Source: Heterodontus francisci
Lineage: Eukaryota
NCBI RefSeq assembly: GCF_036365525.1
Contig: NC_090396.1
Coordinates: 40,784,689 to 40,848,688, forward strand
Direction of reading: 5' to 3'
Length of the DNA stretch: 64,000 bases
Below the pieces are notes generated by a model. That model worked only from the letters and a program-made list of their open reading frames with translations. It was not told the DNA's origin and did not search any database. Each line of letters begins with the position of its first letter. Position 1 is the first letter of the stretch. A program made the position numbers and the translations under genes. This document shows, piece by piece, positions 2,263-62,514 of this stretch.

Positions 2263-5200
2263 AGGTAGTGGTATTGTCACTGAACTAATAACCCAGAAAA
2301 CCAGCGTTTGCTCTGGGGATATGGGTTTGAATCCCATTACAGTAGAAGGTAGAATTTGAATTCAATTAATAAATTGGGAATTAAAAAGCCAGTATAATGA
2401 TGGGAAAGAATCCATTGTTTTAAAAAAAAAAAAAATCTGATTCACTAATGTCATTTAGGGAAGAAATCTGCTGCCCTTACCTGGTCTGGCCTATATGTAA
2501 CTCCAGACCCACAGCAATGTGACTCTTAAATGCCCTCTGAAATGGCTTAGCAAGTCACTCCGTTTTATCTAACTGCTACGAAGTCAATAATAAAAAAAAA
2601 GAAACTGGACAGACCACCGGCATTGACCTAGGCACTAGAAATGACAATGGCAAATCTAGCCCTGTCGACCCTGCAAAGTTCTCCTTACCAACATCTGGGG
2701 GCTTGTGCCAAAGTTGGGAGAGCTGTCCCGCAGACTAGTCAAGCAACAGCCTGACATAGTCATACTCTCAGAATCATATCTTACACGCAATGTCCCAGAC
2801 ACTGCAATCACCATCCCTGGGTATGTCCTGTCCCACTGGCAGGACAGACCCAGCAGAGGTGGCAGCACAGTGGTATACAGTCAGGAGAGAGTGGTCCTGG
2901 GAGTCCTAAACATTGACTCTGGACCCCATGAAGTCTCATGGTATCAGGTCAAACATGGGCAAACCTCCTGCTGATTACCACCTACCATCCTTCCTCAGCT
3001 GATGAATCAGTACTCCTCCATGTTGAACACCACTTGGAGGAAGCACTGAGGGTGGCAAGGGCACAGAATGCACTCTGCTTGGGGGAACCTCAATGTCCAT
3101 CACCAAGAGTGGCTCTGTACCAACATGACTGGCCCAGTCCTAAAGGACATAGTTGCTAGACTGGGTATGCGGCAGGTGGTGAGGGAAAAACAGACTTGTC
3201 CTCGTCCTCACCAATCTGCCTGCCGCAGATGCATCTGTCCATGACAGTATTGGTAGGAGTGACCACCACACAATCCTTGTGGAGACAACGTACCGCCTTC
3301 ACATTGAGGTTACCCTCCATCATGTTGTGTGGCACTACCACCGTGCTGACTGGGATAGATTTCGAACAGATCTAACATTGCAAAACTGAGCCTCCATGAG
3401 GTGCTGTGGGCCATCGGCAGCAGCAGAATTGTACTCAACCACAATCTGTAACCTCATGGCCCGGCATATTCCCCACTCTCCCATTAGCAGCAAGCCAGGA
3501 GATTAACCCTGGCTCAATGAGGGCATGCCAGGAGCAGCACCAGGCATACCTCAAAATGAGGTGTCAGCTTGGTGAAGCTACAACTCAGGACTGCTTGCGT
3601 GCTAAACTGCGGAAGCAGCACGCAACAGACAGAGCTGAACAATCCCATAACCAACGGATTCTATCTAAGCTCTGCAGTCCTACCACATCCAGCCGTGAAT
3701 GGTGGTGGACAATTAAACAGCTAACTGGCAGAGGTGGCTCTACAAATATCCCCATCCTCAATAATGGAGGAGCCCAGCACATCAGTGTGAAAGATAAGGC
3801 TGAAGCATTTGCAACAATCTTCAGCCAGAAGTGCCGAATGGAAGATCCATCTTGTCCTCCTGAAGTTCCCAGCATCACAGATGCCAGACTTCAGGAATTT
3901 CAATTCAGCCCGTGTGATATCAAGAAATGACTTAAATCACTGGATACTGCAAAGGCTACGGGCCCTGACAATATTCCAGCAAGACTAGTGCTCCAGAACT
4001 TGCCATGCCCCTAGCCAAGCTGTTCCAGCTACAACACTGGCATCTACCCGGCAATGTGGAAAATTGCCCGGGTATGCCCTGTACACAAAAAGCAGGAAAA
4101 GTCCAACCCAGCAAATTACTGCCCCATCAGCCTACTGTCAATCATCAGTAAAGTGATGGAAGGTGTCATCGACAGTGCCATCAAGCGGCACTTGCTTAGC
4201 AGTAAGCTGCTCAGTGACACTCAGTTTGGGTTTCGCCAGGGGCACTCAGCTCCTGACCTAATTACAGCCTTGGTGCAAACATGAACAAAAGAGCTGAATT
4301 CAAGAAGTGAGGTGACAGTGGCAGCCCTTGACATCAAGGCAGCATTTGCCCGACTATGGCATCAAGGAGCCCTAGGAAAACTGGAGTCAATGGGAATCAG
4401 GGGAAAACTCTCCACTAGTTGGAGTCATAACTAGTGCAAAGGAAGATTGTTGTGGTTGTTGAAGGTCAATCATCTGAGCTCCAGGACATCACTGCAGGGG
4501 TTCCTCAGGGTAGTGTCCTCGGCCTAACCATCTTCGACTGCTTCTTCAATGTCCTTCCTTCAATCATAAGGTCAGAAGTGGGGATGTTCGCTGATGATTG
4601 CACAATGTTCAACACCATTCGCGACTCTTCAGATGCTGAAGCAGTTCGTGTAGAAATGCAACAAGACCTGGACAATATCCAGGTTTGGGCTGATAAGTGG
4701 CAAGTAACATTTGTGCCACACAAGTGCCAAGCAATGACCATCTCCACAAGAGCGAATATAAACATCTCCTCTTGATATTCAATGGCATTACGATTGTTGA
4801 ATCCCCCACTTTCAACATTCTAGGGGTTACCAGTGACCAGAAACTGAACTGGAGTAGCCATATAAGTACCATGGCTACAAGAGCAGATCAGAGGCTAGGA
4901 CTCCTGCGGTGAGTAACTCACCTCCTGACTCCCCAAAGCCTGTCCACCATCTACAGGGCACAAGTCAGGGGTGTGATGGAATACTCTGCACTTGCCTGGA
5001 TGGGTGCAGCTCCAACAACACTCAAGAAGCTCGACACCATCCAGGACAAAGCAGCCCGCTTGAATGGCACCCCATCCACAAACATTCACGCCCACACCAC
5101 CAACACACAGTAGCAGCAGTGTGTACCTTCTACAAGATGCACTGCAGCAATGAACCAAGGCTCCTTAAATTGCACCTTCCAAACCCACGACCTCTACCAA

Positions 5201-5480
5201 CTAGAAGGACAAGGGCAGCAAATGCATGGGAACACCACCATCTGCAAGTTCCACTCCAAGGCACACACCATCCTGACTTGGAACTATATCACCGTTCTTT
5301 CACTGTTGCTGGGTCAAAATCCTGGAACTCCCTTCCTAACAGCACTGTGGGTGTACCTACCTCACATGGACTGCAGCAGTTCAAGACAGCAGCTCACCAC
5401 CAACTTCTCAAGGGCAATTAGGAATGGGCAATAAATGCTGGCATAGCCAGTGACGCCCACACACCATGAATGATTTTTTA
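2263..5480 (+). mobile_element. Near full-length decayed non-LTR retrotransposon (CR1/L2 group), single APE+RT ORF, tRNA-like 5' head
   Basis: APE fragments (PDIVILSES, DRPSRGG), RT motifs (PISLLSIISKVME, QFGFRQGHS, GVPQGSVLG, FADDC); frameshifts and stops; B-box-like GGTTTGAATCC near 2324. Confidence 0.9.
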
Positions 5481-20486: not shown

Positions 20487-20556
20487 ATGGCTACTTATTT
20501 TCCAAAAATACTTTGTTTTATTGTGCTTTTCTTCTGCCTAACCGTTCTGGCAAATA
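20487..20556 (+). CDS. Gene 1 (B7/PD-L1-like IgSF) coding exon 1: signal peptide MATYFPKILCFIVLFFCLTVLAN
   Basis: Acceptor ttttaaacag ends 20461; ATG at 20487; hydrophobic signal-like peptide; phase-1 donor A|GTGAGT at 20557. Confidence 0.85.
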
Positions 20557-20652
20557 GTGAGTTTTGTATCATTTCTGTTATATACAAAATTTCTGTTATC
20601 TACTTCTTCACCATGAAGTGTAAGTGTTAACTGATAGTCATAATTATTTCAG

Positions 20653-20982
20653 ATACATTTACAAATGTGGAGTGTAATAGCCCAGACACAGGAATACAGA
20701 ACAACCGCACTGTTTTGTTTTGTGAGTACAAGACACAAAGTGCGAAGGTATGTAATAGTACCTGGTTTTACGCTCCACTGAATACCACTAACTGGATGCA
20801 AGTTCCATGTACATCTGATAAGAAAAGAAATGCTCAGAAAAGAAAAAGGTGTCTTACAGATTTAAAGACTGCATCATTGATAATTGAGAAAACGAAAATC
20901 TTGGATGCAGGGAAATACCAGATTTTCCTAAACTGTGGATCAGATGGCTATGATACAATGTATGTAGATCTTCTGGTTAAAG
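20653..20982 (+). CDS. Gene 1 IgV-like exon (..TFTNVECNSPDTG..LFCEY..STWFY..ASLIIEKTKILDAGKYQIFLNCG..VDLLVK)
   Basis: Acceptor tatttcag|, donor G|GTAGGT, phase 1-1; B-strand Cys, C-strand Trp, E-strand ASLxI and D-x-G-x-Y motif of V-set domains. Confidence 0.9.
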
Positions 20983-21697
20983 GTAGGTAAATAAAATCTA
21001 TTTTCTTTCAACAGAGCAATACAAGAGGTAGCAATATTTCAGATCAGAGATTGAAGATGAAAACTAATATAATCGCATCAGTAAAGGAGCTATTTATAAT
21101 AATGGTCTTTTCTGGACCATTACAGTCTGCAGTCTAAGGGCATCGGGACATATGATGAGGCCAAGTACTTGTGATGATTTATCATAGATAACAATACACT
21201 TCTGGAGTTGGCTGTGATGTGCTTAGGTACAATCATCCAGAGTTCCAATTCCTGATTTATCCTTTGTGGAAGTGTGCATGAGTAGGCATTGGATGAGGAT
21301 GAGATTGAGCTCGGTTGTAAGGCCCCTGTAGTTGAAGCTCCTGCCACCACTTATTTTCCTGATTCACAAATGAATAACAACCACCCCAGCTGAGGTACTA
21401 GACAGCTGTTGGCACACATATCACCATGTTCCAGCATTGGCAACTTTTTAGTAGAGAGGAGGAATTGGAATTGAAATAAGTCATCTAAAATCACATGGTA
21501 CTCTGCTCTTTCAGTTCATTTTGACAAGAAGTAAAGCTTCACTCTTGTATGATGCAGTCCGCATGGAGTCTGTATAAAAAATATTGGGAAAATAGTTTGT
21601 GATGCTACTATAAAGGTGGGTGTTGGTCCTATTTGATCCAGTTATACATCGCTTGACTTGGGGTCTGAAGGTTAAACTTGTAAAGTATACTTTTCAG

Positions 21698-21952
21698 CTC
21701 CATATACTGTGCCACAAGTAACCAAAAGGGTGCAAGGTATTGAAAGAGGTCTTTCTTGTACTACACTTGGATATCCATTGGCAAAACTCTACTGGCAGAT
21801 TGAAAATGGAACCAATCTGACTGCCAATTCTATCATAACACAAACAGAAGATTTGTTGTACAACATCACGACTTACACTTCAGTAATTGGAGAATGGTGT
21901 TCTGTAAACTATAAATGCTTTGTATGCATTGAAAATGAATGCATATATGAAA
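21698..21952 (+). CDS. Gene 1 IgC1-like exon (APYTVPQV..LSCTTLGYPLAKLYW..LLYNITT..YKCFV)
   Basis: Acceptor cttttcag|, donor A|GTAAGT; K-APY junction and C-x3-GYP-x-A-x-x-x-W motif typical of B7-family/PD-L1 C domains. Confidence 0.9.
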
Positions 21953-23552
21953 GTAAGTTTTGGTTTTATTTACTTCTGTTTGAAATGTAAGCTTTTCAAT
22001 GATTGTGCAACTGGCCAGTTACACACACAGGACAAAATACATGGCCTGCAGTCAGTGATGGGAAATATCTTTACAAGTGATACTGTCCGATAGCTCATGT
22101 GTCATTAGTGAGTTATGGTTGGTTTCACCACTGAAAAGGCAAAATATACCTGGGTATAATGTAAAAAATATTTACCCAAGTGATTTAGGATGGTAGGCTA
22201 ATAAACTAGGCAAGAATTAGATATGATCAGTGAGATTATTAAACCTATGATCCTGAACAATACTGGTGAATTCCCCCATGGCATTGTTTTCAGTAAGACA
22301 GTGTTTTATAAGGACAAAAGCATTATTTTTTTTTAAGTGAGGTAGAGGATTAGCTGCAATGGGAAATATGGACATAAGCTGGTCCTGTAAGGAATGAACA
22401 CCTGAGGTTGTTTATGGTCTGTCCTTGAGGTGGATCAGAATGCATGTTGCTTTGGAATGTTGGAGTGTCACTTTGGCACTGCCTGGAGAAAGTTGAACAA
22501 CGTTCTATTCACAAGCACCAACAGCTTTCTTCATAACCAACAAAAAATTCAAACTGCACTCTCTCTAAATAACTCCAAAACACCCTCAATAGAGATTCAG
22601 TTAATAAATACCAAATACCATCCCGAATTTAATTGTTTATCATGGATCCATTGAGGCCACAGAACTCAGGCTGGTTTGCCTTTTCCTGCTGTTAGGCCCA
22701 CCATTGCTAGAACTGCCACAAGAATGAATATCATTTTATTCTTAATCGTATATATTTATTAATAAACATCAATCACTGTACTATACTGCCATTTCAAGGT
22801 TATGGAAGCTTGTGGCTTAGTATTGATGTTAGCAACCATCATCAGCATCTCTCTGTACTTCTGAAGCTCCCACAAATGTTGGATATAGTTGGCTGCCCTG
22901 AATTTCTGAGCCACTCCAAATGGCAAGCAGCTCATCGCCCTGGAAATTGGAAAATTGGAAGTCCAGCACTGGGCCCGAGAAAGTCAGAAACTCAGCAAAA
23001 GTCCAGGAAAATGAGAGGTCTTGTGACTATTGATCTGATATGGACAGGCATGAAGAAGGCAGCTCTCAGTGCAAATTAATGGCTGGAGATGTCAAGGAAG
23101 GACAAAGAGTAGGGCGCAAGAGAGGAAACTCTATTTGGGTTGACAGAAAAGTTAGGAAGCGTTTAACATAATCACTTGATCAAAATACGAATGATCATGT
23201 GGTTCCTGTGTGAATTCAAATTACAAGAGGTTACAGACTCAATTTTTAAAGTTATTTTTATCATCTAATGAACACAGCTATACTATGGCACTCAGCTATG
23301 CTTTTTCCCCAGATAAAGCACAATATGAACCATCAACATATTTGTGCCTCAATATATAATTAAATTATTATTTACTTATTAAGATATGATATGCATAGAA
23401 TGAAATAGATTACAAGCATTTTTTCTAAATTTGAGATGAGATCATATTTAGATTGTTAAAGGTTGTATCATTTTCATTCCTCATTACACTCTAGGCAACA
23501 AGCTTGATACAGATTGTATTGAAACATCTTATTTATATATTTGTCATTTCAG

Positions 23553-23702
23553 GATTGGAGTGTCCTAAAAGTGAAACAATCCATCAGTCACTGAAAAGAA
23601 ATACCAGAACTGTTGATGGTGTTTATTTATCTCTGGGCTTAGTAACTATTTTGGCACTTTTGGTACTTTTCTTTACAAGGTTTAATATGAATGCTGATAA
23701 AG
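23553..23702 (+). CDS. Gene 1 stalk + transmembrane exon (..VYLSLGLVTILALLVLFFTRF..)
   Basis: Acceptor catttcag|, donor G|GTAAAG; in frame with the C exon; ~19-aa hydrophobic helix. Confidence 0.85.
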
Positions 23703-33089: not shown

Positions 33090-34290
33090 TCTTTTTTTAT
33101 TCGTTCATGGGATGTAGGCATTGCTGGCTAGGTCACCAGGTGGTGATGTTCCCATGCACCTGCTGCCTTTGTCGTTCTACATGGTAGAGATCACGAGTTT
33201 GGAAGGTGCTGTCTAAAGAGCCTTGGTGCGTTGCTGCAGCGCATCTTGTAGATGATGCACACTGCTGCCATTGTGTGTTGGTGGTGGAGGGAGTGAATGT
33301 TTGTGGATGGGGTGCCAATCAAGCAGGCTGCTTTATCCTGGATGGTGTTGAGCTTCTTGAGTGTTGTTGAAGCTGCACCCATCCAGGCAAGTGGAGAGTA
33401 TTCCATCACACCCCTGACTTGTGCCTTGTAGATGGTGGACAGGCTTTGGGGAGTCAGGAGGTGAGTTACTCACCGCAGGATTCCTAGCCTCTGACCTGCT
33501 CTTGTAGCCACGGTATTTAGATGGCTATTCCAGTTCAGTTTCTCGTCAATGGTAACCCCCAGGATGCTGAAAGTGGGGGATTCAGAGATCGTAATGCCAT
33601 TGAATATCATGGGGAGATGGTTAGATTCTCTCTTGTTGGAGATGGTCATTGCCTGGCACTTGTGTGGTGTGAATGTTACTTGCCACTTATCAGCCCAGGC
33701 CTGGATATTGTCCAGGTCTTGGTGCATTTCTACAGAGACTGCTTCAGTTTCTGAGGAATGGCGAATGGTGCTGAACATTGTGCAATCATCAGCGAACATC
33801 CCCACTTCTGATTTTATGATTGAAGGAAGGTCATTGATGAAGCAGCCAAAGATATTAGGGCCTAGGACACAAGCCTGAGGAACTCCTGCAGTGATGTCCA
33901 GGAGGTGAGATGATTGACCTCCAGCAACCACAACCATCTTCCTTTGTGCTTGGTATGACTCCAACCAGTGGAGATTTTTCCCCCTGATTCCCATTGACTC
34001 CAGTTTTGCTGGGGCTCCTTGATGCCATACTCAGTCAAATGCTGCCTTGATGTCAAGGGCAGTCACTGTCACCTCACCTCTTGTGTTCAGCTCTTTTGTC
34101 CATGTTTGCACCAAAGCTGTAGTGAGGTCAAGAGCTGAGTGGCCCTGGCAGAACCCAAACTGAGCATCACTGAGCAGGTTATTGCTAAGTACGTGCTACA
34201 TGGTAGCACTGTCAATGACACCTTCCATCACATTACTGATGATCGAGAGTAGACTGATGGGGTGGTAATTGGCCAGGCCCTTTTTTTGTG
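33090..34290 (-). mobile_element. 5'-truncated copy of the same LINE family (RT + 3' end)
   Basis: ORFs 33470-33994 and 33191-33409 match the RT/3' region of 2263-5480. Confidence 0.9.
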
Positions 34291-35519: not shown

Positions 35520-35890
35520 AAGGGAAGGAGAAAAAAAAGTGAGAGGCAGCTGTTTGCTGCGCTCATTTTAAACGGCACAGGTATGCAGAAAAGTTGTGAA
35601 GGAGCTATAGATAACCTTTTTTCTCGCTGTTTGCACCAACACACGCTGACAGAGGCTGGTAACTTTTCTAGGCTGGACAGTGGATCGAGCCGACAGCCCC
35701 ACTCGCTCTCCGCAGATCCCACCACTTGGTTCCGGGTTCAACTGTGTCGGTTGTTGTGTTTCGAGATCTCCTGAATCAGTCGCAGCAATTGTCAAGCTCT
35801 CGGATTTTGGATGGTGACTTTTCCAGGGTCAGTTTGAACCCCTGCCTCGTGTGGACCCGGTTGGATATCCGCATTTTCATTGGAACAAAG
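35520..35890 (+). other. Putative non-coding first exon of gene 2 (paralogs ~48330-48640 and ~59990-60324)
   Basis: Block conserved among duplicates directly after the ISRE, ending at AAG|GTACAG (35891; AAG|GTACAA at 60325 in gene 4). TSS not determinable. Confidence 0.45.
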
Positions 35891-36125
35891 GTACAGTCTG
35901 ACTTTCTGAAACTTAGGAACATTGCTTCCTTGACAATTCTGTAAAGCAAAGGTTTCTAGCAATGCAAATGTATCTGATAGTTCAACGATACACGGTTCTT
36001 TGAAATTCCTGACAAAACTTAAGTTATGATAGGCAAGAAAAGTGAAATCAGTTTTGATTGGATCCCTGAGGTTTAATGATTTTTCTCTGTTGTCCTTAAA
36101 TTCGCAGGGGAACTGAATTCTGGAA

Positions 36126-36192
36126 ATGGCTTCTCGCCATATAATAAGTCTCCTTTATTTATTCTTACTCAGATGCGCACCCTTTGCCCAAA
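36126..36192 (+). CDS. Gene 2 (B7/PD-L1-like IgSF) signal peptide exon MASRHIISLLYLFLLRCAPFAQ
   Basis: Acceptor ttcgcag| at 36107; gaaATGg Kozak context; donor A|GTAAGT; homologous exons at 51850 and 62034. Confidence 0.88.
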
Positions 36193-36271: not shown

Positions 36272-36589
36272 AGTTCGTGACTTTAGACTGTGAACATTCA
36301 GTGACAGGAATATTTAATGAAGACACCATACTACCATGCAAAATTAAGTCAACAGTGGTGAGCAAACCTAGTTTCATTCAACTGATTAAAGATGGAGACG
36401 AAACAGCTATCTTTACCTTTGAGGAAAGTGGCAAAGGAGTTCAGAGTCGAATTAAATTACTTCATCCAACTTCTCAAGATGTATCACTGGAAATCCAGAA
36501 AACACAAGTGTCAGATAAGGGGACATATCAATATTATTTGGAAACATATTCTGGTTACGACCGTCAGTACATCACACTGAAGGTTAAAG
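36272..36589 (+). CDS. Gene 2 IgV-like exon (KFVTLDCEHSVTGIFNEDTILPC..RIKLL..DVSLEIQKTQVSDKGTYQYYLE..ITLKVK)
   Basis: Acceptor ttttttag|, donor G|GTAAAT; V-set motifs LPC, R-I, DVSLxI, DxGxY, G-strand ITLKV. Confidence 0.92.
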
Positions 36590-36949: not shown

Positions 36950-38000
36950 ATTTTTTTATTCTTTCATAGGGTGTTTGCATCACTGGCTAGTCCAGCATTT
37001 ATTACTCATTGCTAATTGCCCTTGAGAAGGTGGTGGTGAGCTGCCTTCTTGAACTGCTGCAGTCCATGTGGTGTAGGTATACCCACAGTGCTACCAGGAT
37101 GAGAGTTCCAGGATTTTGACCCAGTGACAGTGAAGAAATGGTGATATAGTTCCAAGTCAGGATGGTGTGTAGCTTGGAGGGGAACTTGCAGGTGGTGGTA
37201 TTCCCATGCATCTGCTGCCCTTGTCCTTCTAGGTGATAGAGGTTGCAGGTTTGGAAGGTGCTGTCAAAGGAGCCTTGGTGAGTTGCTGCAGTGCATCTCG
37301 TAGATGGTACACACTGCTACCACAGTGCATCAGTGGTGGAGAGAGTGCATGTTGAATGTGATGGATGGGGTGCCAGTCAAGTCGGCTGCTTTGTCCTGGA
37401 TGGTGTCGAGCTTCTTGACTGCTGTTGGAACTGCACCCATCCAGGCAAGTGCAGAGTATTCCATTACACTCCTGACTTGTGTATTGTAGATGGTGGGCCG
37501 GCTTAGATGAGTCAGGAGGTGAGTTACCACAGGATTCCTAGCCTTTGAACTGCTCTTGTAGCCATGGTATTTATATGGCTACTCCAGTTCAATTTCCGGT
37601 CAATGGTAACCCCCAGGATGTTGACAGTTGGGGATTCAGCGATGGTAATGCCATTGAATGTCAAAGGGAGAGGGTTGGATTCTCTCTTGTTGGACATGCT
37701 CATTGCCTGGCACTTGTGTGGCGCGAATGTAACTTGCCACTTATCAGCCCAAGCCTGAATGTTGTCCAGCTCTTGCCGCATATAGACACCAACTGCATCA
37801 GTATCTGAGGAGTTGTGCATGGTACTGAACATTGTACAATCATCAGTGAGAAATCCCAGTTCTGATCTTATGATGGAGGGAAGGCCATTGATGAAGCAGC
37901 TGAAGATGGTTGGATCTCAGACACGGTCCTGAGGAACTCCTGCAGTGATGTTCTGGGACTGAGATGATTGACCTCCTTTGTGCTAAGTATGACTCCAACC
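36950..38000 (-). mobile_element. 5'-truncated copy of the same LINE family in gene 2 intron 3
   Basis: ORFs 37524-37832 and 37330-37530 homologous to the RT C-terminus. Confidence 0.9.
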
Positions 38001-39684: not shown

Positions 39685-39975
39685 CTCCATATAGTTTGCC
39701 AAATGTGACCTCATTTGCCAAAAGAAGAATGAGAATAACAGAACTCATTTGTGAAACAACTGGATACCCACTAGCTCAGATTCACTGGTATGTCGATGAA
39801 AAAAGGAACCACACATCCAAGTATAAAACTACTATTGAAGAAACCCCAGAAGGGCTGTTCAAGATCATCAGCACGCTTCAAATCAAAGTTGCAGAAAGTG
39901 CCTTGGAAGGCAATTATACTTGTGCCGTGTGGAATGTGGAAGAGCACACATATGAGGTGCAGAAACAGTTTCTAA
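39685..39975 (+). CDS. Gene 2 IgC1-like exon (APYSLPNV..LICETTGYPLAQIHWY..GLFKIISTLQI..YTCAVWN)
   Basis: Acceptor tttttttag|, donor A|GTAAGT; canonical B- and F-strand Cys and Trp; GYP and LFxxxSTLxI motifs as in PD-L1/B7 C domains. Confidence 0.93.
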
Positions 39976-40398: not shown

Positions 40399-41880
40399 GT
40401 ATGATAGTTGTGTAAGTGCTTCTGATTTCTTTTGAAACTTCTCATCTTTGATACATCAATTATGATGTTGTCTTATTTTTAAAATACTTTTGTCTTTGTA
40501 TGCAGCCCATAATCTGACAACCTGATAATTCAGTTTAAATGTATAATATGTCACTAGTGCAAGTTTAAAGGCTTACTAAAAAGAAAGGTGCAACAGAATC
40601 TGAAACACTCTCAATGGCTTCAAATTCTGTCTGTCGTTCTAATTCACTTCCCAGCATTGTATGACTTAGGTAAGTTTTTAGCTGAACCACTGGATGTCAA
40701 GAATGCTGACCTCATTGAGTACAAAATTGTTCACTGAATATTCACTTAAGTGAAATAGAGAGAAGTCCAAAGCTTGGAATTTTACCTAATTGGTTACAAT
40801 GTTCAGATTTCCTTATGTCCTATTTGGTTGAAATAGTTGGGTGAAGAGGGGGCTGATAATGTAGCAATATAAGTCATGCTTCCCACCTTCCACCCCCGGC
40901 ACCCGCACCATCCTACTTCCACCTAGAGAATAAAGGAAACCCCCTGTTGAGTCACACTGACCTGCTCTTGTGCACTTTCTATTGAGCCATATCCAGCCAT
41001 CGAACAGCATGAGACAAGATGTGGAAATAAATCAACTGTGGGTTTCCAAGCCACAAGTTCAAAATTGTAATGTTTAGTACAGGGAAAAGCAAATGGGGAG
41101 GGGAAGGAAGGACAGATTCTTTAAATAGGAACTGGACCTTAAAAAAAATCATACCATATTCTTGGGCCCAACTTGCAAAGCCAACATTTATTGCCTCTAC
41201 CAAGTTGCCCTGAGAAGGTGCTAAAGGGCCACCTTCTTTGTAATTTGATATAACTGAATAGCTTGTTAAGCTAATTCAGAGGTCAATTAAGAATCAACTA
41301 CATTGGTGTGGGACTTGAGTTATATATAGAACAGGCAGGACTTTAGGCTTCCTTCCAAAAGGAAATTAGTGAACCAGTGGGTTTTTATGACAATGGTCCA
41401 AAATTAGCTGAAGCTTCATCGTCACCAAAAATGATACCAGCCTTTTTAAAAAAAAACTAGATTCAAATTCTCACACTGTGATGGTGGGATTTGAGCTTGT
41501 GTCCTCGATATGACTAGATCAGCTTTTGAATTCAGGAACATAGCCACTACATTATTGTACCTTTCTAGTCAAATAAGATGACTGAAATCTTATATGTAGG
41601 ATCGCACTAATGTTGAGGCATTTTGCTTATAAAATCATTCATATGGTTGGACAAAGGAGTAGGAAAGATTATTTGAATGTTAATTAGGGAAAATATGAGC
41701 ATTGATTTAACTGTCAATATTATTACAATTTTGCAGATTATGCTCTTTCTTATATTTAGGAGTTTTGAAACGATAAGAAATAATAAATTGCAAATTGTCA
41801 TAGGTGGAAATGTTATTTCAAATTAAATTTTAAGTACCAGCAATATTTAATTGTTTTTCCTTTTGCTTTTATTTTAGCAG

Positions 41881-41906
41881 GTAGAAGAGATTCCGAATTC
41901 CCAATG
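41881..41906 (+). CDS. Gene 2 short cytoplasmic exon (GRRDSEFPM)
   Basis: Long polypyrimidine tract with tandem TAGCAG acceptor; donor ATG|GTAGGT. Confidence 0.7.
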
Positions 41907-41985
41907 GTAGGTGTGATTTCAAACATTAGCTTATTCTTTGAAGGCCTTGAGTCACTGTTTTCATAAGTTCTTTTTTTTTTAACAG

Positions 41986-42015
41986 ATATCAAATGACCAG
42001 CAGTCTGATGCTTAA
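41986..42015 (+). CDS. Gene 2 terminal coding exon (ISNDQQSDA*)
   Basis: Acceptor T-tract + aacag|; spliced CDS 888 nt = 295 aa. An alternative donor at 41911 would give ..VDIK* instead. Confidence 0.65.
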   Translation: MSNDQQSDA

Positions 42016-47225: not shown

Positions 47226-48013
47226 TGTTATTCTGCTAATTGTCTGTCAATGGTTTGATTATGTTGGCCGCGTTGAGGACATCTGCGTTGGAGGTGGCAG
47301 GACCGTATCTCCAACACAGAAGTCCTCGAGGCGGCCAACATCCCCAGCATATACACCCTACTGAACCAGTGGCGCTTGAAATGGCTTGGCCATGTGATCC
47401 GCATGGAAGATGGCAGGATCCCCAAGGAAACATTGTACAGTGAGCTCGTCACAGGTATGAAACACACCGGCCATCCATGTCTCCACTTTAAAGATGTCTG
47501 CAAATGCGACATGAAGTCCTGTGACATGGACCACAAGTTGTGGGAGTCAGTTGTAAGTGATCACCAGAGCTGGCGGGCAGCCATAAAGGCAGGGCTAAAG
47601 AGTGGTGAGTCGAACAGACTTAGCAGTTGGCAGGAAAACAGGCAGAAGCGTAAGGAGAGAGCCAACTGTGTAACAGCCCCGACAACCAATTTTATCTGCA
47701 GCGCCTGTGGAAGAGTCTGTCACTCTTGACTTGGCCTTTATAGCCACTCCAGGTGCTGCTTCACAAACCACTGACCACCTCCAGGCGCTTACCCATTGTT
47801 TCTGGAGACAAGGAGGTCAAAGAGAGAGATAGAGAGAGGTTTGATTATATGCGGTGAACGGTGTTAATTGGGGTCTTAGTCAAGCACTTATAAGCAGACC
47901 CTCACTAAGACTGCTGGAGGGTTTGAGTGAGGAGCTATACCAGTAAATGTAAAACTGAGTTTTTATGGGCTCCAGCATTTTCCTTCCATAAACGAGCTTT
48001 CTCGAACTTAACA
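47226..48013. mobile_element. Small solo LTR (TGTTA...TAACA), interrupted by RTE, immediately upstream of the gene 3 promoter
   Basis: TG..CA termini; 5-bp TSD TTAGG/TTCGG; the paralogous site near 33000 is empty (..attaggtc..). Confidence 0.65.
47263..47837 (+). mobile_element. RTE-clade LINE 3' fragment with 11-bp TSD, inserted in a solo LTR
   Basis: WLGHVIRMEDGRIPKETLYSEL and C-terminal CxxCGRxC motif; TSD GGTTTGATTAT at 47252-47262 and 47838-47848. Confidence 0.9.
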
Positions 48014-51849: not shown

Positions 51850-52329
51850 ATGGGCTCATACCATATAATAAGTCTACTCTACGCTGTCTTATACACAAGT
51901 ACATCTTCTGCTGAAAGTAAGTACTGAAGTGCTTCCCAATTTACAGCTCATTCAACCCCAACGGGCAATGCAGTAATACAAGTTAATGAAATTATTGGTT
52001 TTCATGGTTCGTGACTTTAGATTGTGAGCGTTCAGTGACAGGAATATTTAATGAAGACACTAAACTACCATGTACATGCAATTCAACAAATCTGAAAATA
52101 TTTAATCACATTGAACAGAGCAAATATGGAAAAACTTAAACCATGCCTATCTTTAACTCAACGGAAAGTGTCAAAGGAACTCAGGGTTGAATTAAATTAC
52201 TTCATCAAGACTCACAAGATGTATCACTGGTAATCCAGAAAACACAACTGTCAGAAAATGGGACAAATAAATATTATTTGCAAACAATTTCTGGTCACGT
52301 CTGTCAAGACATCACACTGAAGATTAAAG
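51850..52329 (+). pseudogene. Gene 3: pseudogene paralog of genes 2/4 (signal exon 51850-51916, IgV exon ~52006-52329); C, TM and tail exons deleted
   Basis: Clear DNA homology to 36126-36589. V-exon acceptor AG mutated to AT (52004-52005). In-frame TAA (52137) and TGA (52188, CGA>TGA). Downstream sequence jumps from intron 3 to the 3'-UTR homolog at ~52640 (= ~42840). Confidence 0.9.
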
Positions 52330-57509: not shown

Positions 57510-59325
57510 CCTGTAAAAGCTTCTTTAGGCATGTGAAAAGGAAAAGATTAGCAAGGACGAATGTTGGTCCATTGCAGGCGGAGACAGGAGAGTTTGTGGG
57601 GGAGAATGGGGAAGTGGGGGAGAGACTAAACAACTACTTTGTGTCTGTCTTCAGACACAGAATAACTCCCAGAAATACCAGGGAATCAAGGGACTTGTAA
57701 AAATGAGGAACTGAAAGTAATTAGTATCAACAAAGAGTTAGTATTCGAAAAATTAATTGGATGAAAGTTGATAAATCCCCTGGATCAGATCAGCTGCATC
57801 CCAAAATATTGAAGGAGATAGCTATAGAGAGAATGGATGCATTGGTGGTTATCTTTCAAAATTCGTTAAATCCTGGAAGGGTTCCTGCAGACTAGAAAGT
57901 AGCCAATGTAACCCCACTATTTAAGAATTGAGCGATAGAGAAAACTCAGAACTTCAGACCTGTTAGTTTGATGTCAGTAGTAGGGAATGTGTTAGAATCT
58001 ATTCTAAAGGCTGAGATAACTGGACACTTGGAAAATAATGGTATAATTGGGCAGAGTCAACATGGATTTATGAAAGGGAAATCATGTTTCACAAACCAGT
58101 TGGAGTTTTTTTGTGGATGTTACTTGTAGCATAGAAAAAGGAGAACCAGTGGATGTGCTGTATTTGGATTTTCAAAAGGCGTTTGATAAGGTCCCACACA
58201 GGAGGTTAGTAAACAAAATTAGAGCACATGGGATTGGGGGTAATATGTATTGAGAATTGGTTAACAGACAGAAAGCAGAGAATAGGAATAAATGGGTCAT
58301 TCTCAGGATGACAGGCTGTTCCTAGTGGGGTACTGAGAGGATCAGTGCTGGGGCCACAGCTGTTCACAATCTATATAAATGATTTGAATGTGGGGACCAA
58401 ATGTAATATTTCCAAATTTGCTGATGACACAAAACTAGGTGGGAATGTAAGTTGTGAGGAGGATGCAAGGAGGCTTCAAGGGGACTTGGACAGTCTAAGT
58501 GAATTGGCAAGGACATGGCAGATGGAATATAATGTGAATAAGTGTGAAGTGATCCACTTTGGTAGAAAAAAACAGAAAGACAGAGTATTTCTTAAATGTT
58601 GAGCGGTTGGAAAGTGTTGATATCTAAAGGGACCTGGGTGTCCTTGTTCCTGGGTCACAAAAAGCTAGTACGCAGTTGCAGCAAGTAATAGGAAGGCAAA
58701 TGATATGTTGGCCTTCATTACAAGGGAATTTGAGTACAGGAGTGAAGATGTCTTGCTATAATTGTATAATGCCTTGGTGAGACTGCACCTGAAGTATTGT
58801 GTACAGTTTTGGTCTCCTTAACTAAGGAAGGATACACTTACCATAGATGGAGTGCAACGGATGTTCACCAGACTAATCCCTGGGATGGTGGGACTGTCTT
58901 ATGAGGAGAGACTGCAGAAACTGAAGAGTATCGAAGAATGAGAAATGATCCCATTGAAATTTGCAAAATTCTTACAGCGTGTGACAAAGTAGATGTGGAT
59001 CGGATGTTTCCTCTGGTTGGTGGGTCTAGAACCAGGGGGCACAGTCTCAGAACAAGGGGCAGGCCATTTAAAGACTGAGATGAGGAGGAGTTTCTTTACT
59101 CAGAGGGTGGTGAATCTGTGGAATTCTCTACCCCAGAGGGCTGTGGAAGCTCAATCATTGAGCATGTTCAAGACTGAAATCGATAGATTTCAGGATACTA
59201 ATGACATCAAACGATATGGGGATAGTGGGGAAAAATAGCATAGAGAAAGATGATCAGCCATGATCTGTTTGAATGGCAGAGCAGACTCGACGGGTTGAAT
59301 GGCCTACTCCTGCCCCTATTTCCTA
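57510..59325 (+). mobile_element. CR1-clade (HER1-like) LINE, 5'-truncated and decayed
   Basis: LGPQLFTIYIND, KFADDTKLGG, KCEVIHFG, FFTQRVVNLWNSLP motifs; CR1-type 3' tail. Confidence 0.92.
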
Positions 59326-62033: not shown

Positions 62034-62100
62034 ATGAGTTCATACCATACAATAAGTCTCCTTTATGTCATCTTCTATGCAAGCACACTCAATGCACTAA
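62034..62100 (+). CDS. Gene 4 signal peptide exon MSSYHTISLLYVIFYASTLNAL
   Basis: Acceptor aagcag| at 62015; donor A|GTAAGT; paralogous to the gene 2 exon. Confidence 0.82.
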
Positions 62101-62190
62101 GTAAGTACTGAAATGCATCTCGATATAAAGCTCATTCAACAGCAATTGTCATTGAAGTAACATGAGCTAATGAAAATTATTGTTTTTCAG

Positions 62191-62514
62191 AGCTTGTGAA
62201 TTTTGATTGTGAGGATTTAGTGACAGGAATATTTAACGAAGATCCGAAACTACCATGTCCATTCAGTTCAAGCAATATGAATACATTTGAGCTCATTGAA
62301 CAGAGTAAATGTGAAAAGGATGGAGAAACATTAATCTTTAATGCAACTGAAAGGGACCAAGAAGCTCAGGGTCGAATTAAATTACTTCATCCACATTCAC
62401 AAGATATATCATTGGTAATCCAGAAAACACAACTGTCAGATGTTGGGGAATATAAATATTACCTGGAAACAACTTCTGGTCACATCAGTCAATACATCAC
62501 ACTGAAGGTTAAAG
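62191..62514 (+). CDS. Gene 4 IgV-like exon (KLVNFDCEDLVTG..LPC..DVGEYKYYLE..ITLKVK); remaining exons, if any, lie beyond the window
   Basis: Acceptor tttttcag|; open frame; weak donor G|GTGGAT; strong similarity to gene 2 V exon. Confidence 0.82.

Follow-up and report, generated by a model that had tools for sequence, protein, structure and literature searches.

Tandem B7-type genes beside a CD7-like gene in the shark Heterodontus francisci: a probable two-domain ancestral SECTM1 with a predicted A-B disulfide

SECTM1 (K12) and CD7 are neighbours in human and rodents, as described in passages of two reports (PMC4603632, PMC3769348). In mouse, both SECTM1A and SECTM1B bind CD7, and they can act independently of it as well, according to passages of the latter (PMC3769348). 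In sections of PMC4603632, SECTM1 is given two invariant Cys (C38 and C55, 17 apart) and a GxYxWxLxGxQ motif, in which GxYxWxL replaces GxYxC. An atypical disulfide within one sheet was modelled for it there in 2015 by Bianchetti et al., with CD4 cited as the precedent. The idea of an atypical disulfide is thus, by those sections, not a new one. They also report SECTM1 as eutherian-specific and absent from zebrafish, chicken, platypus and marsupials, a call made by BLAST with cut-offs at 65 bits and 28% identity (PMC4603632). YEDM is the PI3K motif of CD7, according to the title of a reference cited in PMC2193045. CD28X also has YEDM, together with a PPP loop and a different synteny (passages of PMC11599192).

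The window analyzed here was a stretch of 64,000 nucleotides from H. francisci (G000:C26:40784689-40848688). It contained four tandem genes, all on the + strand, and a fifth lay 23 kb past its end. These genes encode B7-type proteins, with a leader, IgV, IgC, transmembrane segment and short tail in intact copies. Gene 2 had this layout with one domain per exon:

35699..35890, + strand, gene 2 5' non-coding exon, start approximate (contig joint GT..AG)
36108..36192, + strand, gene 2 leader exon, ATG at 36126, followed by a 79-base intron (contig joints)
36272..36589, + strand, gene 2 V exon, a non-canonical IgV, residues 23-129 of P0001 (Pfam V-set, E 3.8e-9; AG/GT ends)
39685..39975, + strand, gene 2 IgC exon, B7/CD80-like, with both canonical Cys (Pfam C2-set_2 and Ig_3; contig joints)
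40243..40398, + strand, gene 2 stalk and transmembrane exon (model, contig joints)
41878..42015, + strand, two short gene 2 cytoplasmic exons, 41878-41906 and 41986 to the stop (contig joints)

Gene 2 was intact, and its leader, V, C, transmembrane and two tail exons were all spliced at GT..AG in contigs from four sequencing runs (X1-X4; presumed RNA, one sample, one study). The V exon was 99% identical to P0001, a protein of H. francisci. No Tyr motif was seen in the cytoplasmic exons (41878..42015). Pfam V-set was above its cut-off in genes 2 and 4. The other copies in the window were as follows:

20487..23702, + strand, gene 1, a divergent paralogue: leader 20487-20556, V 20653-20982, C 21698-21952, transmembrane 23553-23702
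51850..52329, + strand, gene 3, a pseudogene: leader and V exon (52006-52329), splice acceptor gone, two stops
62034..62514, + strand, gene 4, leader and V exon (62191-62514); annotated protein P0005, 230 aa

No C or transmembrane exon of gene 3 was found at the locus. The C exon of gene 4 lay just outside the window and was without the first C-domain Cys; a transmembrane exon was looked for at the locus and not found. From its sequence, gene 4 appears truncated; its product may be secreted, or the gene may be decaying. Two C exons followed gene 4, an extra one that is broken and an intact one without the first Cys (L018:1040-1231 and 1542-1838). Genes 2-4 were 58-61% identical to one another and gene 1 was 22-29% identical to the rest, so that the phrase 'deeply diverged paralogs', used in the preliminary description, fits gene 1 only.

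LINE-like reverse transcriptase/endonuclease fragments were seen in introns and intergenic DNA at window positions 2660-5430, 33190-34030, 37000-37920, 47230-47730 and 58310-58600. About 61% of the window matched repeats in its flanks.

Five positions of the gene 2 V domain were followed through the family:

36289..36291, + strand, C29, the A-strand Cys, 16 residues before the B-strand Cys (69/70 family V domains; end of model strand E25-29)
36337..36339, + strand, C45, the canonical B-strand Cys (70/70; start of model strand E45-49)
36382..36384, + strand, L60, the core-Trp site (column L41, W26, Q2 of 70; W in the B7-H3 and PD-L1 rows)
36532..36534, + strand, Y110, the F-strand Cys site (column Y38, C23, F4 of 70; C in the B7-H3 and PD-L1 rows)
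36553..36555, + strand, G117, the FG-loop Gly (invariant, 70/70; centre of the predicted CD7 contact, with the lowest-error contacts)

The preliminary description had reported that the V domains lack the F-strand Cys and share a Cys on strand A, and its readings of the sequence were reproduced. The F-strand motifs were DAGKYQI (gene 1), DKGTYQY (gene 2), ENGTNKY (gene 3) and DVGEYKY (gene 4); the A-Cys stood exactly 16 residues ahead of the B-strand Cys in all four V exons of the window; C29 and C45 were the sole two Cys of the gene 2 domain; and in the core-Trp column only gene 1 had Trp, with Leu for gene 2 and Gln for both gene 3 and gene 4. The F-strand Cys was absent from all five cluster copies. 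Canonical V features were nevertheless present in gene 2, namely C45, D104-G106-Y108 and the model strands. Loss of the A-Cys by signal peptide cleavage, which would have spoken against a bond, was rejected, since C29 is six codons into the V exon, behind the leader exon (contig joints), and within a modelled strand.

The gene 1 V domain contained six Cys, with Trp present and Ile at the F site, so the pairing is ambiguous as read from its sequence. Heptranchias P0147 was the counterpart of gene 1, with an identical six-Cys set. The six-Cys V (window 20653-20982; P0147) suggests that as many as three disulfides form and that gene 1 and P0147 represent an old line of paralogues of their own.

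Thirty-one proteins of sharks and rays came from a word-based search, and both Cys were invariant among them. A full HMMER scan added members from bichir, reedfish, sturgeon, bowfin, many teleosts (including zgc:174863) and coelacanth, so that the family spans sharks, rays, bichir, sturgeon, bowfin, teleosts and coelacanth. Seventy V domains were scored: one from each of the 31 proteins, 37 from the 42 new hits no longer than 700 aa, and those of genes 1 and 3. Five canonical B7/Ig proteins (outgroup or non-family) and 103 longer hits were set aside from this count. By column, the B-Cys was present in 70, the A-Cys in 69, the F-Cys in 23 and the core Trp in 26. The Cys states were A+F- in 47 domains, A+F+ in 22 and A-F+ in one (coelacanth P0154); A-F- was seen in none. 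The spacing from A-Cys to B-Cys was 16 in 61 of the 69 domains, 15 in seven and 17 in one.

A Cys 15-17 ahead of the B-Cys was found in none of 731 canonical Ig domains from non-family proteins, many of which are repeats of a few giants and not independent. The A-Cys pattern exceeds chance (69/70 family domains vs 0/731 canonical domains). It marks a B7-type V+C+TM family and is not local decay.

The A-Cys had been called new in the preliminary description. It is not, as it stood together with Trp and F-Cys in 21 ray-finned fish domains and is therefore likely to be earlier. In the survey of orthologs proposed there, the pattern recurred in sharks and rays; most teleost members keep Trp and F-Cys beside the A-Cys. 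The teleost zgc:174863 or 'CD276 antigen homolog' genes belonged to the same family by profile search and tree, with the A-Cys retained; unlike the shark copies, most carry Trp and F-Cys, and hence three core Cys.

In a tree built from 67 family ectodomains with three outgroup rows, the family fell on one side of a 98/97 branch. The outgroup consisted of only three long-branch rows (PD-L1, B7-H3 and HHLA2-like), and the direction of change is not given by the tree. The F-Cys state needed five changes, at least three of them forced by well-supported branches. The simplest order, inferred from the Trp and F-Cys carried by the outgroups, is that the A-Cys was gained first and the F-Cys was then repeatedly lost. 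The A-Cys would first have made an A/B/F triad, still found in most ray-finned fish; F-Cys and Trp would then have been lost more than once, and one coelacanth paralogue would have lost the A-Cys instead. The F-Cys was probably regained in one skate protein. Joint loss of Trp and F-Cys looked strong in the raw counts (22/5/1/42), which reduce to three independent supported pairs, and a sign test was not significant.

Several single members departed from the common form. Skate (Amblyraja) P0031 read YHC, though nested among proteins without F-Cys, and the coelacanth (Latimeria) paralogue P0154 had Trp and F-Cys with the A-Cys missing. The number of domains varied among P0010-P0013, P0065, P0058, P0035 and P0041, where stingrays and coelacanth had V-C-C, a skate had two V domains and no C, and an eel and a characiform had many-V arrays. 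The coelacanth proteins XP_005998594-597 (P0133, P0154, P0187) have consecutive accessions on one 37.8-Mb contig, which suggests a tandem cluster there too.

AlphaFold2 modelled P0001 as a V+C sandwich (pLDDT 78.7; 97 for the block that follows C29 and 89 for that around C45). The model strands E25-29 and E45-49 were equally long, and C29 and C45 occupied corresponding ends of them. In V domains, strands A and B pair antiparallel. If E25-29 and E45-49 pair in this way, end to end, C29 would be opposite C45. In an alignment, the A-Cys site fell within one residue of the last A-strand Val of B7-H3 and PD-L1, a Val that presumably faces inward. A V-only model from four sequences (pLDDT 45) was set aside.

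We consider a disulfide between C29 and C45 likely, because the two are the only Cys pair of gene 2, the pair is nearly invariant, no A-F- member was found, the residues lie on model strands A and B, and SECTM1 has been modelled with such a bond before. The A-B bond proposed in the preliminary description is thus likely, and what did not stand is its role as a patch for the lost F-Cys. C29 and C45 would face each other across neighbouring strands of one sheet, and the intra-sheet disulfide would replace the B-F bond.

Domain 2 of CD4 has an intra-sheet disulfide replacing or beside the B-F bond, as predicted here, and Siglec V domains and the Nav beta1/beta3 subunits have intra-sheet disulfides too. 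These domains use other strand pairs or another B-strand Cys. In the predicted shark bond, unlike those of CD4 D2, Siglecs and Nav beta, the canonical B-Cys itself would switch partner.

The nearest solved folds to the predicted model were butyrophilin, B7-H3, B7-H6, PD-L2 and PD-L1 (VIA Z 15.8-16.8), and with the ectodomain only, the top rows against solved B7 and butyrophilin structures gave an rmsd of 2.0-4.0 over 183-207 residues. By phmmer, the best PDB matches were CD276, PD-L2 and PD-L1, and the NCBI names of these proteins are 'PD-L1-like' or 'CD276-like'. The B7 family (B7-H3/CD276, PD-L1, PD-L2, butyrophilin) shares with them the layout, the V/C junction motif and the nearest solved sequences and folds. 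The V core, in contrast, is canonical there and non-canonical here, and the 98/97 branch separates the PD-L1, B7-H3 and HHLA2-like outgroup.

Orthology with named B7 genes was considered and rejected. PD-L1 and PD-L2 are linked to PLGRKT. The cluster is on C26, while a canonical PD-L1-like gene was found on C4, 1.9 Mb from PLGRKT, and the V core of the cluster genes is non-canonical. CD276 (B7-H3) was rejected on the tree, which splits the family from the three long-branch outgroup rows at the 98/97 branch. Other B7- or butyrophilin-like loci of the genome were L009 (G000:C4:190.40 Mb), L010 (C141), L012 (C37), L014 (C31) and L011/L015 (C13); they include a probable true PD-L1 and a single-exon multi-Ig gene.

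A CD7-like gene lay 52 kb downstream of gene 5 on the same strand, with no gene seen between them. It occupied L026:146-3035 and L027:3771-3872 (G000:C26, 40.93-40.94 Mb), 80 kb past the window. Its exons, read from genomic DNA, were a V exon that has a J-like GQG and no core Trp, a transmembrane exon, and a tail exon with VYEDM. This combination was the only such match in eight loci read on the + strand. The PDB matches of its V domain were antibody V domains. The PPP loop of CD28X was absent. By its features (single V, transmembrane segment, cytoplasmic YEDM), which are those of CD7, the neighbour is likely CD7.

A second CD7-like copy (L061, G000:C26:40992641-40992976; L045:1081-3150) had a V domain 91% identical to the first and a HENM tail without Tyr; its sequence would allow a possible non-signalling decoy. 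A third (L062, 41039224-41039460) was degenerate, with stops. ORF fragments resembling gag/env of an LTR element or endogenous retrovirus were seen just past the CD7-like gene (L040:1500-5244).

CYBC1 was found 1.1 Mb upstream on the same chromosome, head to head with a NARF-type gene, and CK1 delta/epsilon and FASN-type exons were found 6 Mb downstream on the same strand. CYBC1, NARF, CK1 and FASN are genes of human 17q25.3 that flank SECTM1 and CD7. The CK1 exon motif was not found in the 400 kb read past the first CD7-like gene, the 300 kb read upstream showed no UTS2R-like ORF, neither a kinase nor a GPCR neighbour was found in the flanks read, and a HEXD-type family search pointed to C4 only. 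The local gene order was only partly kept, as the CK1 gene is 6 Mb away.

The likeness to SECTM1, as described in sections of PMC4603632 and PMC3769348, extends over several features. The V-domain Cys pair is 17 apart there and 15-17 apart here, an aromatic residue occupies the F-Cys site, and the disulfide is predicted within one sheet; both are type I membrane proteins with genes beside CD7 that are prone to tandem duplication. Three coelacanth members had GxYxW, two of them GxYxWxL, and GxYx[WYF]x[LIV] was present in 43 of the 70 domains. In the shark copies the F site was Tyr, and the FG loop was longer than in the SECTM1 motif. In SECTM1, G121 follows L119 by two residues; the distance to the invariant Gly of the present family is five. 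SECTM1 has one Ig domain, as against V+C here, which points to a likely ancestral variant and not to SECTM1 in the mammalian sense. The present family, unlike SECTM1, extends from sharks to coelacanth, has mostly Tyr and not Trp at the F site, and has many fish members that keep Trp and F-Cys.

In the Atlas, the best unnamed cluster for the coelacanth V domain was 'Secreted and transmembrane protein 1' (score 0.92, 171/256 features). This match did not appear without the coelacanth query and the 'unnamed' filter. The clusters ranked second and third both scored 0.90, and shuffled proteins reached 0.9 in 4-10 of 100. It is a lead of moderate strength. With the shark query, CD200, nectin and others were listed and SECTM1 was not among them. 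Neither SECTM1 nor CD7 chains were among the PDB matches or the viral library matches listed. No tetrapod member or SECTM1-named protein was among the best 150 of 4749 representative profile hits, where long multi-Ig proteins crowded the ranks (names were checked for 30 of the 145 new ids among these 150), and a V-profile search gave no SECTM1 and no tetrapod member in 59 hits, similarly crowded; both negatives are weak.

On these grounds the tandem genes beside the CD7-like gene are probably a two-domain ancestral SECTM1, the CD7 ligand, and an offshoot of B7 whose core disulfide would have shifted from B-F to A-B by way of the three-Cys state. The step from coelacanth to mammal rests on pattern, language-model features and position. 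The mammalian SECTM1 would later have lost the IgC exon. This likely identity, of SECTM1 relatives beside CD7, was left out of the preliminary description, and we judged it the more important point.

ESMFold2 gave a score of 0.73 when the V domains of gene 2 and of the CD7-like receptor were modelled as a complex, and the best of three controls scored 0.01, the controls being unrelated proteins not selected as Ig domains. Both chains were folded without alignments. The runs agreed in at least 92% of contacts, and the pLDDT of the partner was at least 88. In calibration, 51/78 solved and 2/108 mismatched microbial pairs reached the score mark; among eukaryotic pairs it was reached by 39/65 solved ones without a like complex and 2/126 unrelated ones. 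The predicted contact comprised residues 23-24, 59-68 and 109-120, centred on G117 (invariant in 70/70). As the controls were not Ig domains and face-to-face V-V complexes have already been solved, the pass may reflect likeness to solved V-V complexes such as PD-1/PD-L1. Binding of the gene 2 V domain to the CD7-like V domain is predicted, with support from this model. In the predicted mode, strands C, C', F and G, together with the FG-loop Gly that is invariant in the family, would contact the V domain of the CD7-like receptor encoded nearby. Through its YEDM tail, that receptor would recruit PI3K and give T or NK cells a co-stimulatory signal, as CD7 does in mammals.

The observations were also weighed against a B7 lineage confined to fish, an offshoot of B7-H3/PD-L with its own gain of the A-Cys, in which the proximity of CD7 would be chance and SECTM1 would be born in mammals with a convergent likeness. 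It would be in line with the whole protein being nearest to CD276 and PD-L1/2 in sequence and fold, with the lack of a tetrapod member in the two profile searches, and with the absence of SECTM1 from zebrafish, chicken, platypus and marsupials reported in passages of PMC4603632. We consider it unlikely, as it requires a coincidence of the Atlas match, the adjacency of the CD7-like gene, the rare pair of Cys and the aromatic residue in place of the F-Cys. The published absence, as those passages give it, also rests on cut-offs that would miss members of this kind: with only 20-30% identity among themselves, they may have been missed at 28% and 65 bits.

If the orthology is true, the A-B bond itself might still be missing, with the A-Cys free or used in inter-chain dimers and the core held by aromatic packing as in disulfide-free V domains. 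The 22 of 70 domains with three Cys, in which one must be unpaired or paired elsewhere, agree with this. The B-Cys was kept, however, in 47 of 47 domains without F-Cys, the sole domain without A-Cys has the F-Cys, and the A-Cys site aligns within a residue of the presumably inward-facing last A-strand Val of B7-H3 and PD-L1; we regard the lack of a bond as quite improbable. Loss of F-Cys and Trp by relaxed selection in decaying duplicates of a lineage-specific tandem array would accord with the pseudogene state of gene 3 and the apparent truncation of gene 4. This is very hard to sustain, as gene 2 is intact and spliced in contigs and, among the elasmobranchs (sharks, rays and skates), 38 of 39 V domains have the same state. 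Orthologs all keeping YxC had been named as a sign of recent decay; these 38 are without it, and conservation across sharks and rays largely refutes recent decay.

Preferring the ancestral two-domain SECTM1, we lean slightly towards a wider reading, in which SECTM1 would be a B7 member minus its IgC domain, CD7 and SECTM1 would be a linked B7/CD28-type pair as old as the jawed vertebrates, with both duplicated in the shark, and the three-Cys V domains of ray-finned fish would be a living intermediate of the disulfide swap, maybe in two isomers. The family identity as two-domain SECTM1, the CD7 linkage, the predicted binding and the three-Cys intermediate are likely to be new. Among the papers that the literature search reached, none describes SECTM1 outside mammals or treats it as a B7 gene, and these fish genes may have been described earlier under another name; passages of PMC12151841, PMC13223139, PMC8515872, PMC6795676 and PMC10965728 contained no non-mammalian vertebrate SECTM1 and no B7 placement.

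If the identity is true, the published eutherian-specific view of SECTM1 would be overturned, and its odd Ig domain would be explained as a V domain of B7 type whose disulfide has moved. Automatic B7 names can mislead fish immunology, and the fish genes auto-named PD-L1-like, CD276-like, ICOSL-like and CD80-like would gain an identity and a testable receptor. CD7-SECTM1 would join the ancient co-stimulatory pairs of B7 type, and the natural series B-F, A/B/F and A-B would offer a means of studying how the Ig fold can exchange its most conserved bond.
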